Shown: positions 1 through 4,925 of the stretch, one piece after another | Layout of the letters: every line of letters begins with the position of its first letter | Position numbering within the stretch: the first letter of the stretch is position 1 | Origin: Escherichia coli | Lineage (GTDB): Bacteria > Pseudomonadota > Gammaproteobacteria > Enterobacterales > Enterobacteriaceae | Assembly: GCF_003334255.1 (NCBI RefSeq) | Contig: NZ_QOWU01000106.1 | DNA length: 4,925 nt | Direction: 5' to 3' (one strand) | Program-made: the position numbers and the translations under genes | Notes under the pieces: generated by a model | Database searches by the model: none | What the model was told of the DNA's origin: nothing | The model's input: only the letters and a program-made list of their open reading frames with translations

Positions 1-244
1 CCGGATGCCGCCAGGCAGCCGGGAGCCGAAGGTGCGCCCGGCAGACAGGACAACACTGCAGTAGTCAGAATCAGAGCAGGAAGAAAAAGAGAATAATCAC
101 AGGGAAGGTGATGTGATTTCTGACAGGCCATAACCAGAGAAGGCGGGGGAAAAGAACGGGCGCCGCAGGCGCGCGTTCATCCCCGTTCCTGAAGGGAAAC
201 GACCTTCCTGAAGTCAGGTTGTTCATGCCCGTACAACATCAGCA

Positions 245-280
245 AGGAGAAAGGGGCTACCGGCGAACCAGCAGCCCCTT
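245..280 (-). terminator. Second hairpin downstream of hok (8-bp stem, 14-nt loop) followed by a U/C-rich tract; candidate 3'-terminal structure of full-length hok mRNA
   Basis: Plus-strand aaggggct (251-258) and agcccctt (273-280) are perfect reverse complements. On the minus strand the hairpin is followed by UCUCCUUGCU. Confidence 0.3.
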
Positions 281-316
281 TATAAAGGCGCTTCAGTAGT
301 CAGACCAGCATCAGTC

Positions 317-341
317 CTGAAAAGGCGGGCCTGCGCCCGCC
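317..341 (-). terminator. GC-rich hairpin plus U-tract about 10 nt downstream of the hok stop; hok mRNA 3' structural element or terminator
   Basis: Minus-strand stem GGCGGGC/GCCCGCC (plus coordinates 324-330 pairing with 335-341, 4-nt loop) followed on the minus strand by UUUU (complement of 320-323). Confidence 0.4.
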
Positions 342-350
342 TCCAGGTTG

Positions 351-509
351 CTACTTACCGGATTCGTAAGCCATGAAAGCCGCCACCTCCCTGTGTCCGT
401 CTCTGTAACGAATCTCGCACAGCGATTTTCGTGTCAGATAAGTGAATATCAACAGTGTGAGACACACGATCAACACACACCAGACAAGGGAACTTCGTGG
501 TAGTTTCAT
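351..509 (-). CDS. hok: Hok toxin (type I toxin-antitoxin, small membrane-depolarising peptide, 52 aa)
   Basis: Manual translation of the minus strand from ATG (complement of 507-509) to TAG (complement of 351-353) gives [52 protein letters not shown]. From memory this matches Hok of plasmid R1 / FlmA of F essentially residue for residue. It has a hydrophobic N-terminal transmembrane segment, lies wholly inside the overlapping mok frame, and sits immediately downstream of psiA as in IncF plasmids. Confidence 0.92.
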
Positions 510-567
510 GGCCTTCTTCTCCTTGCGCAAAGCGCGGTAAGAGGCTATCCTGATGTGGACTAGACAT
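355..567 (-). CDS. mok: Mok (modulation of killing) leader ORF overlapping hok; its translation is coupled to hok translation
   Basis: 70-aa ORF in the track that overlaps the hok CDS in a different frame, the defining arrangement of hok/sok-family loci. ATG at complement of 565-567 with GAGG about 8 nt upstream on the minus strand. Mok has no known independent function. Confidence 0.7.
523..551 (+). promoter_or_regulatory. Candidate sok promoter (-35 TTGCGC, -10 TATCCT, 17-bp spacer), located inside the hok/mok coding region
   Basis: Hexamers read directly from the plus strand; the position gives a transcript of Sok-like length ending at the hairpin/U-tract near 612-623. Match to the sigma-70 consensus is moderate (4/6 and 4/6). 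Confidence 0.4.
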
Positions 568-623
568 AGGGATGCCTCGTGGTGGTTAATGAAAATTAAC
601 TTACTACGGGGCTATCTTCTTTC
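558..623 (+). ncRNA. sok: Sok antisense RNA (about 65 nt), antitoxin of hok; boundaries approximate
   Basis: Plus-strand transcript predicted from a candidate promoter (TTGCGC 523-528, 17-bp spacer, TATCCT 546-551). It is antisense to the mok SD/start region (mok ATG at 565-567). It ends in a long imperfect hairpin (about 574-612, apical stem GUUAAU-GAAA-AUUAAC at 585-600) followed by a U-rich tract (613-623). Length and position match what is known of Sok; the exact 5' and 3' ends are not determined. Confidence 0.55.
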
Positions 624-685
624 TGCCACACAACACGGCAACAAACCACCTTCACGTCATGAGGCAGAAAGCCTCAAGCGCCGGG

Positions 686-720
686 CACATCATAGCCCAT
701 ATACCTGCACGCTGACCACA
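686..720 (-). promoter_or_regulatory. Candidate hok/mok mRNA promoter (minus strand: -10 TATGAT at complement of 689-694, weak -35 TGGTCA/GGTCAG around 712-718)
   Basis: Best sigma-70-like -10 on the minus strand between the psiA stop (789) and the mok start (567). A start near 682 would give a full-length mRNA of about 400 nt if the 3' end is near 285. The -35 is weak, which fits a weak constitutive hok promoter, but the assignment is uncertain. Confidence 0.25.
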
Positions 721-788: not shown

Positions 789-1508
789 TCACGCTGCCTC
801 CCGGAGTTTGTTCGGCACCATCCACCGCTCCATCTCACGGACAGCGTGACCGGCCTCTCTTGCTGCAAGACTGGCTTCCGCAATAACCTGCCAGAACGGC
901 ATATCCTGCCACTGCCAGCGTTCCATTCCGGCCAGTGACGGAAAACGCTCGCCCCACTGCCAGAACAGGGTTTCCAGGTCATGCTCTGCCACCCGGTCAC
1001 TCCAGCGTGCATGCCAGCTTCCGACTGTTTCCGGCGAATGGAATGCCAGTTCGATTTCAGCCTGAGCGACCAGCGCCTGGTACGCACGGGCTTTCTGCTC
1101 TGCCTCCCTCGCCTGCTGGCGGCTGTACTTCTGCATGACCAGCGCGGATTTATGGCGACTGCGTTCCCTGACACGAAACCGCACCGACGGGAACAAGCGC
1201 TCTGCTGCATCACCGGGAAGGGGAAGGAGGCAGACCTCGCCCTGTGTTTCAATCAGCACATCGATGGCATACAGCCACTGAAGACGGTTGCCGTGCAGTT
1301 CTTCTGCGGTCAGGGACGGCATGAAAAATCGCAGGTCAGACAGCGATATCCTGCGGCTTCCGTTCAGACAGCGGAAAAACGCACCCGCATACGGATATTC
1401 AGCCAGCGTGTTACCCTGATGGCGGCGTTTTTCGGTCTCCGCCACCGCCCGCCATGCGGCCTGTTGCTCTGTGCTGAGAGGAACCAGTGCCTGTGAACGT
1501 GCGCTCAT
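789..1508 (-). CDS. psiA: PsiA, plasmid SOS inhibition protein A (239 aa)
   Basis: 239-aa ORF beginning [19 protein letters not shown], recognised as PsiA of IncF plasmids. ATG at complement of 1506-1508 is preceded on the minus strand by GGAAGGAGG with a 6-nt spacer. The start overlaps the psiB stop (ATGA). Stop TGA at complement of 789-791. Confidence 0.95.
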
Positions 1509-1939
1509 GCCTGACCTCCTTCCGCCATCAGGATATGAATGATGTCGTTAACGCTGTACCCCTGCGCATCCAGTGACGCCGCCAGTGCCAGTGAATGGCT
1601 GACAGCTTCCGGTGCAAACCGCCGCTGCACCTGAACCACCGCAAACGGCTCACCACCGGCATTCACCAGAACCAGCACCCAGACCTGAGAGACGTCTCCC
1701 GGCGAACATAATGCCAGGTGGAAACGTTCGTGGGCTGGCGTGAAACGAACCTGGACGGGGAAAAAGCCCCCGAACTCACTGCCATACTCGCCATTCATCA
1801 TCCAGTTAGCCGGTGCGTCCACTTCACGCATCACCTCGTGAGTGAGATTACGGCGCATATCGCTTCCCGCAGCACGGATATCTTCATATTCCTGTGCGTT
1901 CATGGACTGCAGGGCATTCAGGGTCAGTTCAGTTTTCAT
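1505..1939 (-). CDS. psiB: PsiB, plasmid SOS inhibition protein B (144 aa); binds RecA and limits SOS induction in the recipient during conjugation
   Basis: ORF translating [32 protein letters not shown]..., recognised as PsiB. The track ORF begins one codon earlier at a GTG (complement of 1940-1942); I call the ATG at complement of 1937-1939, which has AAGGGAGA 7 nt upstream on the minus strand. Confidence 0.95.
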
Positions 1940-1958
1940 CACGGTATCTCCCTTGCTG

Positions 1959-1981
1959 CCGCCCCGTCTCCGGCGGGGCGG
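1959..1981. other. Intercistronic GC-rich hairpin between the ParB-like gene and psiB (stem ccgccccg/cggggcgg, 7-nt loop)
   Basis: Perfect 8-bp inverted repeat 1959-1966 / 1974-1981. It lies between the ParB-like stop (1994-1996) and the psiB SD/start (1939). Confidence 0.45.
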
Positions 1982-1993
1982 TGTGGTTGTTCA

Positions 1994-3952
1994 TCAGGCG
2001 GCATCAGCCAGGTTATCGGTGCGTTCAGTGGCATCTGTCTGTGGATGTGGTGCACACATCCAGCCTGGAACCCAGCGGTTGTCTTTCATATGGTGCTCTG
2101 CATGTTCAGCCGCATCACCTTTCTTCATCTTCTCCGCGTCCCGTGCGGCACCGGACAGTCCGGCCTCATTCAGGGCTGCGATAATCTGCGGCTTTTTCAG
2201 GTGTCCGAAGAAGTTTGCTTTTGTCGGCTGCCACCAGTCGCGCATGTGGAATCCGATAGCGCTTTCCAGCGAGTCAAGCGGACTGCGTGACGTGTGACCA
2301 CACTCACGGGTCTGGACACCGTTAAGGCTGCATGCGGTGCAGAAACTGAGCAGGGATAACAGCACCTCCTGACTGAGGGACAGGAATGTCGTCATGTCCC
2401 GTGACCATCCCTCCGGCAGCAGGGCTGCAAGACGGGATTTTTCTGCCATCAGCGCCATGAATGCGGCACCTTCCTTCCCCGATGGCGCATCGCTGGTCAG
2501 CGAATAATGTTCACATTCCAGGCTGATTTGTGCTGGTTTACTGTACGCCCCGCTGCCAAACACATTCAGGCAGAGCGTCCATGCCAGCAGTGCCAGAGAT
2601 TTGTCCGGCTGCTGCATGAGTGCCGCCTGGACTGCCAGCGTGCGCTCTGAGGACATTTTCGTCAGCAACGGCAGGCTGATTTCCTCCACTGACGCTTTCT
2701 CCTGCACCTGTTCCGTGCGGTCAGCGTCGTCAGTCGCGTCATCTTCACTGCGCAACTGCACACCACGCTGGACACATACGTTGCCATAACGCCAGGACAC
2801 CACCACACCGCTTCCGGCACGTATCTCCGGCGTCCACGCTCTGACCTTCGCCATGCAGCGCATCAGCTTCATTTCTGCTTCCAGCAGGTCGGATTCCTCA
2901 CACTGGTTTTCCAGCGCGTCGTAACGCGTCATCAGTTCGTTCAGGCGTTCGTCTTCCGCCTCCGTCAGCACCGCTTCCGGCTCCGGCAGACAGCGGTATG
3001 TTCCGGCATCCTCACGGCACTCACCGACAGGCTCCATGCGCCCGGCGCACCATTCCCAGCCTTCGGCTTCCCGAAGGTGTTCAGCGACAGCCTGGAGTTT
3101 TTCCAGCAGGGCGGCATCGAGCGCCACGCGGTCGACATAACCGTCCCCGTCATCGCTGAACAAATCGGTGCGCAGTTCGTCTGGCGAGAAGGCATCAGCC
3201 CCCACGAAGCGGAATTTACTGTTCCCAGCCACCGCCACTTCACTTTCGGTCACCAGACGACGAATGGTCTGTACTTCCGGTTTACCGCCCCATCCCGACT
3301 GACAGGCGGCTTCAAACACCTGCACCTGACGCGCGGTGTCGTTCTCCAGCGCCAGCGCCTGACAGTGTTCGGTGGTGATGCGGTCTTCTGCCAGCGCATC
3401 GAGGATGACAGGCGCAAGGTCAGCCAGTTTCAGCATTCGCTGAACGTGGCGGGGTGAATAGCCCAGCAAATCACCGATGTGTGCAGGTGTTTTGCCTTCC
3501 TGCGCCATTGCGCGGAATCCGGCAATCTGTTCGGCAGGGTGCATATCCCGACGATGACCGTTCTCGGTCATTGATGCGGCAGTCGCCAGCTCCTGCGGAA
3601 TAATTTTTACGCGGACAGGCCAGTCAGCCGGAATGATGTCACGCTCTGCCAGCATGTTGAGTGCTGCCAGTCGGCGACCACCTGCGGCGACACCGTAACG
3701 GTCACCTGGCAGGGCATGAACAACCAGATTCTGCAGCAGGCCGACTCCCTTAATGGAATCAGCCAGTTCACTGACGGACTCCGCAGAATACGGCACCGTG
3801 CGCACATTCAGCGGTGATTTAATCAGTGAATCCAGCGGCACGCTCACTTCCTCCGTCTGCGCCAGCAGGGCAGACAGTGCAGTTTCCTGCGTTTTTACAG
3901 ATTTACGGCTTGCTTTGCGGGTGGTTTCTGGTTCACACTTCGTTACAGGCAT
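1994..3952 (-). CDS. ParB/Srx N-terminal-domain protein (652 aa) with HTH and a long uncharacterised C-terminal region; leading-region ParB-like protein
   Basis: The N-terminal roughly 200 aa shows ParB N-domain hallmarks: box-I-like LIKSPLNVRT, arginine-rich box-II-like VAAGGRRLAALNMLAE, and a downstream HTH-like segment TPAHIGDLLGYSPRHVQRMLKLADL. The remaining roughly 430 aa has no motif I recognise (no DPPY/NPPY methyltransferase motif, no obvious nuclease motif). Start called at the second ATG (complement of 3950-3952), which has AAGGGG with a 6-nt spacer; the track's first ATG (3958) abuts the SD. Confidence 0.88.
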   Translation of the reverse strand: MPVTKCEPETTRKASRKSVKTQETALSALLAQTEEVSVPLDSLIKSPLNVRTVPYSAESVSELADSIKGVGLLQNLVVHALPGDRYGVAAGGRRLAALNMLAERDIIPADWPVRVKIIPQELATAASMTENGHRRDMHPAEQIAGFRAMAQEGKTPAHIGDLLGYSPRHVQRMLKLADLAPVILDALAEDRITTEHCQALALENDTARQVQVFEAACQSGWGGKPEVQTIRRLVTESEVAVAGNSKFRFVGADAFSPDELRTDLFSDDGDGYVDRVALDAALLEKLQAVAEHLREAEGWEWCAGRMEPVGECREDAGTYRCLPEPEAVLTEAEDERLNELMTRYDALENQCEESDLLEAEMKLMRCMAKVRAWTPEIRAGSGVVVSWRYGNVCVQRGVQLRSEDDATDDADRTEQVQEKASVEEISLPLLTKMSSERTLAVQAALMQQPDKSLALLAWTLCLNVFGSGAYSKPAQISLECEHYSLTSDAPSGKEGAAFMALMAEKSRLAALLPEGWSRDMTTFLSLSQEVLLSLLSFCTACSLNGVQTRECGHTSRSPLDSLESAIGFHMRDWWQPTKANFFGHLKKPQIIAALNEAGLSGAARDAEKMKKGDAAEHAEHHMKDNRWVPGWMCAPHPQTDATERTDNLADAA

Positions 3953-3981
3953 AATCATCCCCTTATAATTGCTTATGTCCT

Positions 3982-4003
3982 GCCGGACGTTCGCGCGTCC
4001 GGC
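3982..4003. other. Intercistronic GC-rich hairpin between the DUF905 gene and the ParB-like gene (stem gccggacg/cgtccggc, 6-nt loop)
   Basis: Perfect 8-bp inverted repeat 3982-3989 / 3996-4003. It lies between the DUF905 stop (4011) and the ParB-like SD/start (3952). Confidence 0.45.
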
Positions 4004-4010
4004 ACCTCTC

Positions 4011-4244
4011 TTACTTAAGAATCCCGAAATCCCTGATGTACCGGTTCATCCAGTACCCGGCACAGTCCTCAAAATTCCAGGAGCGCCAGATCAACGTGCC
4101 ATCCTGACGGACAACCAGGCGAAAATGCGTTCCCTGATCATCCTCGATAAAGACATTCCGGTACTGTGCGGCAACGGCTTCGGCCTGTTTGCGGGTAAAA
4201 GGACCGTCCGGCAGTCCCTGAAGTATTCTGAAATATTCGCTCAT
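4011..4244 (-). CDS. DUF905 family protein (YkfF-like), 77 aa, function unknown
   Basis: Translation [77 protein letters not shown] shares the GPFTRxQAxAV...EDDQGxHFRLVVR...WRxWNFE...NRYIR core with E. coli cryptic-prophage YkfF, as I recall it. The track ORF starts at a GTG (4271); I call the ATG at complement of 4242-4244, preceded by GGAGAG on the minus strand. Confidence 0.8.
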
Positions 4245-4262
4245 CCTCATCTCTCCGGTGAT

Positions 4263-4281
4263 GCCCCGCACTGGACGGGGC
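4263..4281. other. Intercistronic GC-rich hairpin between ssb and the DUF905 gene (stem gccccg/cggggc, 7-nt loop)
   Basis: Perfect 6-bp inverted repeat 4263-4268 / 4276-4281, read directly. It lies between the ssb stop (4300) and the DUF905 SD/start (4244) and is not followed by a U-tract in mRNA sense. Confidence 0.45.
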
Positions 4282-4299
4282 GGTTGTCACTGTCTTTCG

Positions 4300-4827
4300 T
4301 TAGAACGGAATGTCGTCATCGAAGTCATACGCGGGTTCAGACGGCTGCTGAGGCTCCGGCTGCGCGGCCTTACGTCCACGGCCTTTCGTTTTCGCGCCTC
4401 CTTTTTTCGGTTCCGGCTGTGATTCCGGCTGAGGCTGACCGCTGAACTGTTGCGCCTCTTCCGGCTGAGTCTGAGTACCTGCGGCACGTCCCAGCATCTG
4501 CATGGTGCCCGTGGTCTTAACAAGAATTTCGGTGACGTAACGGGTGATACCGTTATCCTCCCAGCTACGGGTGCGAAGCTGACCTTCGATGTAGACCTGC
4601 GCGCCCTTGCGCAGATACTCACCAGCCACTTCCGCGAGCTTGCCGAACAGCACCACGCGATGCCATTCTGTCTGCTCCCGTATCTCCCCCGTCTGTTTGT
4701 CGCGCCAGCTTTCTGACGTGGCCACCTGCAGGTTTGCCACTGCGCCCCCGTTTGGGATGTAACGGACTTCCGGATCTTTTCCCAGACGACCGACAAGAAT
4801 GACCTTGTTAATGCCACGAACTGCCAT
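4300..4827 (-). CDS. ssb: Plasmid-encoded single-stranded DNA-binding protein SSB (175 aa)
   Basis: Translation [48 protein letters not shown]... is a canonical OB-fold SSB N-terminus. The C-terminus has a Gly/Pro/Gln-rich linker and the acidic tip [11 protein letters not shown] at complement of 4825-4827 is preceded on the minus strand by AAGGAGA with a 7-nt spacer. The track's extra 13 N-terminal codons (to 4866) have no SD and are rejected. Stop TAA at complement of 4300-4302. Confidence 0.95.
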
Positions 4828-4925
4828 GATGTGTCTCCTTCTGTTGATGTTTTCAGCCCCCATCATCTGTTGAGTTTCGGGAGCCGCGGTTTTGACGTTT
4901 TGCGGGGACCTGCTCTTTGTTCCCT

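Follow-up and report, generated by a model that had tools for sequence, protein, structure and literature searches.

The question raised by this locus is whether the mRNA of a hok-like toxin gene is closed end to end by its own two termini. In a stretch of Escherichia coli DNA of 4,925 nucleotides (contig NZ_QOWU01000106.1; hereafter the window), two short complementary segments lie far apart on the minus strand, on either side of a toxin reading frame. The earlier note on this DNA read them as tac/fbi-like elements that pair across a hok mRNA of about 400 nt. We conclude, with a probability of about 95%, that window 682 to 285 on the minus strand is a full-length R1-type hok/mok/sok mRNA and that the two heptamers are its tac (5') and fbi (3') elements. 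The reading is supported by the Hok and Mok protein profiles, the Rfam family RF01794, the predicted fold, the homologues and the literature on plasmid R1. The caution attached to the original observation, that it was suggestive rather than decisive, was reasonable from the letters alone and is now unneeded. Inhibition of hok mRNA by the tac/fbi fold-back is already known, and nothing about it is new at this locus.

The complementary segments

On the minus strand, GGCGCUU (window 682-676) is fully complementary to AAGCGCC (293-287), which lies 389 nt further downstream. All seven pairs are Watson-Crick, confirming the complementarity first claimed, and the measured distance fits the estimate of about 390 nt. 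The 3' element is within 286-295, as proposed. The 5' heptamer is not within 671-680, the interval originally assigned to it: that interval has only CGCUUGAGGC, and the heptamer begins 2 nt further 5', at 682, the outer limit of the observation as a whole. A word search finds each sequence once on the minus strand, GGCGCTT at 682 to 676 and AAGCGCC at 293 to 287. Extension beyond the heptamers is limited, again as first described: the seven pairs are followed by a mismatch, G8/G389, and then by just two pairs, A9-U388 and G10-C387. The energy of the tac/fbi duplex is -17.0 kcal/mol.

What exceeds chance is the position of the complementarity, not its length. Within the 398-nt RNA we count 6 complementary 7-mer pairs, compared with 3.5 +/- 2.4 in shuffled sequences. 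In 30,000 shuffles, the first 7 nt find a perfect complement among the 7-mers of the last 15 nt in 0.06% of cases. When any 7-mer from the first 12 nt is allowed to match the last 20 nt, the figure is 0.4%.

Identity of the cassette and its surroundings

This is a type I toxin-antitoxin cassette, hok/mok/sok of the R1 type, located in the leading region of an IncF plasmid. The 52-aa Hok reading frame matches profile NF007279 over residues 1-52 (126.4 bits; cutoff 73) and the 70-aa Mok frame matches NF010277 (151.6 bits; cutoff 110). The two frames overlap, and translation of hok may be coupled to that of mok, as expected of the family. On the hok strand, RF01794 aligns to window 683-507 over model positions 1-157, with 88.9 bits (gathering score 59) and E = 1e-19. 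Copies with 100% identity to the 398-nt segment occur in great number (thousands) on IncF plasmids from Escherichia, Klebsiella, Salmonella and Shigella. The identical copies are annotated as Hok family toxin and Mok and are positioned downstream of psiA, upstream of the traM side. By its gene content, the rest of the window (789-4866, minus strand) is a typical IncF conjugative leading region. The features are collected in Table 1. At the junction of psiB and psiA, the two genes overlap by 4 nt (1505-1508).

Table 1. Features of the window. Numbers given as nt count along the hok RNA, with nt 1 at window position 682.
Feature	Window position	Strand	Remarks
ssb	4866-4300	-	
Small ORF	4271-4011	-	DUF905 according to the annotation of an identical copy of the region
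ParB-like (ParB/RepB/Spo0J-like) protein, 654 aa	3958-1994	-	
psiB	1942-1505	-	
psiA	1508-789	-	
hok promoter-like site	689-718	-	-35 TGGTCA (718-713), 18-nt spacer, -10 TATGAT (694-689)
tac, nt 1-7, GGCGCUU	676-682	-	Pairing extends to nt 9-10 (window 674-673); named in PMC9841398
tac-downstream region, nt 18-29	654-665	-	Can pair with tac as a 5' hairpin; candidate metastable nascent structure
ucb (upstream complementary box, anti-SD), nt 68-75, AUAGCCCC	608-615	-	Partner of the mok Shine-Dalgarno sequence in the full-length RNA
mok Shine-Dalgarno (SD) sequence, GAGG, nt 105-108	575-578	-	Sequestered by ucb in the predicted full-length fold
mok reading frame, 70 aa	355-567	-	Overlaps hok; NF010277
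hok toxin gene, 52 aa	351-509	-	ATG at 509, stop included; NF007279; Hok family toxin in identical records
GC-rich hairpin, GGCGGGC-GCAG-GCCCGCC, nt 342-359 (window 341-324), and the nt-361 3' end	322-341	-	
fbi, nt 390-396, AAGCGCC	287-293	-	Pairing extends to nt 387-388 (window 296-295); 398-nt form ends at 285
Terminator-like hairpin, AAAGGGGCUGCUGG-UUCG-CCGGUAGCCCCUUU, and U-rich tail	242-281	-	Fits the 441-nt primary transcript
Candidate Sok antisense RNA, approximate	557-620	+	Ends placed from the published 64-nt Sok (PMC1635323)

Transcript ends

The sigma-70-like site TGGTCA-18-TATGAT puts +1 about 7 nt downstream, at about 682; it is among the three sites returned by a promoter consensus scan, for which 0.3 are expected in shuffled sequence. 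Position 1 of the RF01794 model aligns to window 683/682. The numbering can also be compared with individual nucleotides of R1 hok, in which U6 pairs with A70, G71 and C72 are in the anti-SD, and G105 and A106 are in the GAGG of the mok SD (PMC9841398). With nt 1 at window 682, all eight of the landmarks G4, C5, U6, A70, G71, C72, G105 and A106 fit. The initial mRNAs of R1 hok are 441 and 398 nt long and the mature, truncated isoform is 361 nt (PMC1635323; PMC9841398). These three lengths map to window 242 (682-441+1), 285 and 322, that is, to the terminator, to a point just past fbi and to a point just past the GC-rich hairpin. By likeness to R1 hok, the transcript at this locus would run from 682 to 285. 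The ends near 682 and 285 that had been proposed from the complementarity agree with the promoter, with model position 1 and with the landmark numbering. For annotation, the gain is a probable start at 682, full-length ends at 285 and 242, and an active end near 322.

Two hairpins mark the 3' region. The GC-rich hairpin has an energy of -19.8 kcal/mol; in R1, the GC-rich stem-loop is the road-block that stops exonucleolytic trimming and gives the 361-nt isoform (PMC1635323, Figs. 1 and 4). Just downstream of fbi, the terminator-like hairpin spans window 281-250, with 14 bp and -25.1 kcal/mol; the list from a simple terminator scan does not include it. On the opposite strand, hexamers resembling a promoter for Sok are present, TTGCGC (523-528) and TATCCT (546-551) with a 17-nt spacer, and the consensus promoter scan does not flag this candidate site. 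A long hairpin at about 570-616 on the Sok strand (-26.5 kcal/mol) is followed by a U-rich tail.

Predicted folds of the full-length and truncated RNAs

Folding of the whole transcript, the check that the earlier note had suggested, pairs nt 1-7 with nt 390-396 at a probability of about 1.0. The 398-nt RNA has a minimum free energy (MFE) of -175.9 kcal/mol, compared with -127 +/- 5.9 kcal/mol in shuffled sequences (z = -8.25). Pair probabilities in the closing helix are 0.98-1.00 in both the 398- and the 441-nt forms, and a constrained fold that keeps nt 1-7 unpaired costs 12.8 kcal/mol. The 441-nt form additionally folds a terminator-like hairpin on the 3' side of the closing helix. The MFE structures of both forms pair the mok SD with ucb (nt 71-75) through G105-C75, G107-C73 and G108-C72.

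The truncated RNA behaves differently at its 5' end. In the 361-nt form, cut at window 322, this end is without a dominant partner (p <= 0.36), and the MFE structure contains a local 5' hairpin between nt 2-12 and nt 18-29. In the published metastable structure of the nascent RNA, tac pairs immediately downstream (PMC9841398); nt 18-29 may be the corresponding tac partner here. Plain MFE folding of the 361-nt RNA does not return the published tac-ucb refolding, and the mok SD is still paired with ucb. Enforcing the tac-ucb fold raises the energy by only 1.7 kcal/mol over the MFE and gives the mok SD a dcb-like partner, nt 116-121. Since tac-ucb is not the MFE structure of the 361-nt form, the activation step is not reproduced in silico; the fold that it requires is energetically close.

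Conservation in close homologues

We compared this locus with eleven homologues, 80-99% identical to it, on plasmids of Escherichia, Salmonella, Klebsiella, Enterobacter and Kosakonia, which gives a close set of 12 sequences (80-100%). The tac GGCGCUUGAGGC and fbi AAGCGCCUUUA sequences are invariant in 12 of 12. Variation occurs in the leader, in the coding region and in the part of the 3' UTR between the hairpin and fbi. Unguided RNAalifold retains the end helix in all 12 sequences and the ucb-SD helix likewise in 12/12; it also recovers the road-block hairpin, five pairs of which show compensatory changes. Because the end helix is invariant among close relatives, this set shows conservation and yields no covariation.

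Covariation in distant homologues

The distant loci comprise pnd, srnB, hokE and loci from Proteus and Vibrio plasmids, with 5' ends set by the Rfam model. In each, a 5' element can be matched to a 3' element: GGGCGC (plus GAGG) with GCGCCC (plus CCUC) in pnd (IncI), GGGUGUCUG with CAGACACCC in srnB, GGGUGCUUG with CAAGCACCC in the Proteus plasmid, GGGAGCUU with AAGCUCCC in the Vibrio plasmid, and GGUGCCU with AGGCACC in hokE. The end of the 3' element is 359-403 nt from +1 in all lineages. MAFFT misaligned the 3' ends of pnd and srnB in the full-length mRNAs; therefore an ungapped mini-alignment of the tac, ucb and fbi segments was used.

In this alignment, double changes are found in 3 of the 9 tac-fbi pairs. 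The first is C-G in 8 sequences, U-A in 3 and A-U in 1; the second is C-G in 11 and U-A in 1; the third is U-A in 8 and C-G in 2. The tac-fbi covariation score was reached by none of 500 shuffles. The tac-fbi columns are 82% paired, compared with 31-57% when the register is slid. G-U pairs are present at the helix end in pndK and hokE. The tac-ucb columns are 94% paired and contain two compensatory changes, both from the single srnB lineage, where ucb changes together with both tac and fbi. Coupled covariation of this kind was described by Gultyaev et al. (1997), as cited in PMC1635323. Loss of the complementarity in homologous loci, which would have spoken against a functional pairing, is not what we find: the elements are either invariant or changed together.

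The 3' segments of the distant loci were picked by eye for complementarity to the 5' end, which introduces a selection bias, and a shuffle and cross-locus control was therefore added. In this ungapped 8-mer control, in which the 3' window is shuffled, srnB, Proteus and Vibrio each give an 8/8 match with P = 0.0004-0.005. R1 and hokE are marginal (7/8, P ~0.04-0.05). By this crude measure pnd is not significant alone (6/8, P ~0.4).

The comparison set was also shaped by the state of the loci. In a blastn search of E. coli genomes, the chromosomal hokA-D loci fell outside it, and one chromosomal match is cut by IS421 and lacks the 3' end. The IncHI2 loci L015, L016 and L024, which are without the 5' leader, and an insertion-disrupted Providencia locus were left out of the end-pairing comparison. 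A scan of viral contigs with a four-sequence alignment gave three loci. Two were false positives without a leader match; the third is a true pndA whose leader is replaced by relE-linked sequence, and no extra lineage was gained.

Comparison with known systems

The hok/sok (parB) locus of R1 (X05813 / KY749247) likewise encodes a 52-aa Hok and a 70-aa Mok, and has the same order of leader, ucb, mok SD, road-block hairpin, fbi and terminator. The fit extends to all eight landmark nucleotides and to the 398-, 441- and 361-nt lengths, a comparison made by published landmarks. By these landmarks no difference is detected; the context here is the IncF leading region, next to psiA.

The flm system (flmA/B/C) of F and other IncF hok/sok variants share the architecture, have identical tac GGCGCUUGAGGC and fbi AAGCGCCUUUA and are also downstream of psiA. 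They differ in nucleotide sequence (80-94% identity), with substitutions and indels in the leader, in the mok/hok coding region and in the stretch of 3' UTR that separates the hairpin from fbi. The F' copy in XL1-Blue, which we take to be flm, is 93.3% identical.

More distantly, srnB of F, pnd of IncI/IncK(B) plasmids, the chromosomal hokE and the Proteus and Vibrio plasmid loci belong to the same leader family (RF01794, 69-134 bits). Their 5'-terminal GGGNG... has its complement in a 3' element that follows 359-374 nt further on, just past a GC-rich hairpin. They differ from the present locus in that both arm sequences are changed and covary. Helix length is 8-9 bp for srnB, Proteus and Vibrio; pnd has 6 bp and a separate GAGG/CCUC helix. 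The toxins of this group are just 26-36% identical to Hok.

The aapA/IsoA system of Helicobacter pylori also produces an inactive full-length toxin mRNA under the control of folding, and its processed form is translatable and sensitive to the antitoxin (PMC9841398; PMC5416894). As judged from these papers, its toxin, RNA sequences and host are unrelated to those of hok, and it has no mok-like leader ORF.

A mechanism adopted from R1

Because the R1 isoform lengths land on window 242, 285 and 322, we adopted the published mechanism for this locus. The present results themselves bear on the terminal complementarity and its weight in the predicted ensemble, the ucb-SD pairing, conservation and covariation, gene content and landmark spacing; processing, refolding in vivo, Sok action and killing come from published work on R1. 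In R1, the tac/fbi stem stabilizes a full-length mRNA that is closed and has its mok SD sequestered by ucb (PMC9841398). The full-length mRNA is inaccessible to ribosomes and to Sok, and truncation triggers its refolding (PMC1635323; PMC9841398). PNPase and RNase II are slowed by the blunt-ended structure that the paired termini create; they remove about 39 nt, up to the stem-loop road-block (PMC1635323). The refolded truncated mRNA permits translation and Sok binding, the latter leading to cleavage by RNase III; toxicity is lost upon substitution at G4, C5 and U6, which destabilizes the tac stem of the truncated form (PMC9841398). Earlier work cited in PMC1635323 includes Franch & Gerdes 1996, Thisted et al. 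1995, Franch et al. 1997 and Gultyaev et al. 1997, and the hok literature, as cited, reports compensatory rescue of the end pairing at the RNA level.

Transferred to this locus, the closing helix (7 bp, a mismatch and 2 bp) would hold the 5' end away from ucb. With tac held by fbi, away from ucb, ucb would stay paired with the mok SD. The closed mRNA would escape both translation and Sok binding, and exonucleases would be kept from its 3' end. Slow 3' trimming by about 37-39 nt, to the GC-rich hairpin (about nt 361, window 322), would remove fbi. The freed tac could then pair with ucb, which would uncover the SD of mok together with the target of Sok. As long as a cell contains the plasmid, Sok would bind and RNase III would destroy the duplex. 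In plasmid-free cells, Sok would decay, and translation of mok and hok would kill the cell.

Alternative explanations

Could a 7-bp complementarity be a functionless chance match? A 7-mer match as such is unremarkable here, with six pairs against 3.5 +/- 2.4 in shuffles, and the helix is short and little extended. Its terminal placement is not, however, being reproduced in just 0.06% of shuffles. The pair probability of about 1.0, the 12.8 kcal/mol that the pairing is worth, the invariance of tac and fbi in the 12 homologues despite varying 3'-UTR flanks, the compensatory changes in distant loci, and the published genetics and structure probing of R1 hok (PMC9841398; PMC1635323) all argue against chance, which we consider to have virtually no likelihood. 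The same holds for the idea that GGCGCTT and AAGCGCC are not an RNA helix at all and instead form a DNA-level inverted repeat flanking the cassette, for example a site of recombination or protein binding at the borders of a mobile hok module. The 5' arm falls exactly on the transcription start that the promoter and the Rfam model predict, the 3' arm is inside the transcript, upstream of the terminator hairpin, and homology between loci runs beyond both arms. A covarying inverted repeat is formally compatible with a palindromic DNA site, but the G-U pairs at the helix end in pndK and hokE fit RNA and not DNA. Rearrangements by IS elements or fusions are frequent at the ends of hok loci, yet in none of the rearranged loci does the break fall at the repeats. 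A DNA site is thus a negligible prospect.

A closer competitor accepts that the end pairing is real and assigns it purely to protection of the 3' end from exonucleases, as a matter of stability, with no block on translation or on Sok. The predicted truncated RNA lends this some support, as ucb is still paired with the mok SD after fbi is gone. Against it stand the reports that the full-length form is closed to ribosomes and Sok and refolds upon truncation (PMC1635323; PMC9841398), and that substitutions at G4, C5 and U6 abolish toxicity via the tac stem of the truncated form (PMC9841398). Moreover, the tac-ucb fold is just 1.7 kcal/mol above the MFE and covaries in srnB, which points to a switch and not to a simple cap. 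A role confined to stability is highly improbable, and the tac/fbi fold-back of a full-length hok mRNA is the reading that we retain.

Significance

The hok/sok system, on which plasmid addiction rests, is the textbook example of alternative long-range folds programming the activity of an mRNA. Its tac/fbi element is recognizable by reading the sequence without tools; no new question is opened by it here.

The leading region is the first DNA to enter the recipient during conjugation. An extra role of the tac/fbi lock in this region, as a timer during plasmid establishment, seems to us quite unlikely. If it existed, early full-length hok mRNA would be inert until Sok accumulates, or would kill recipients in which establishment is aborted. 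The location of hok/sok in the leading region has been noted previously, in work cited in bioRxiv 10.1101/2025.08.07.668861.

Rearranged homologues and additional reading frames

Several homologues have lost part of this organization. In two loci, a hok-like locus on an IncHI2 plasmid (L016, 1-345) and pndA on an IMG/VR contig (L020, 150-447), the same relE-linked upstream sequence replaces the leader. Both are without tac, ucb and Sok and keep the 3' fbi-like element. The arrangement resembles that of chromosomal relBE-hokD. Other hok homologues are interrupted by insertion sequences: IS150 in L015 and L024, IS421 in L023 and an IS1-like element in L025. The insertion sites are in the leader or just past the road-block hairpin, and one arm of the end pairing is lost.

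Two further reading frames accompany the cassette. The ORF at 589-777 on the plus strand is antisense to the hok promoter and leader and overlaps the Sok region. Identical RefSeq copies list it as a hypothetical protein, WP_001299721.1, and one record has "protein sok" at this place; the annotated protein is probably an artefact, laid over a region of non-coding antisense RNA. The hok terminator is followed by the other, a 51-aa ORF at 71-226 on the minus strand; this region also has a GC-rich hairpin (172-160) and, after it, a T-run. In an identical plasmid copy (L027), a hypothetical protein is annotated downstream of hok, at 5152-5382.
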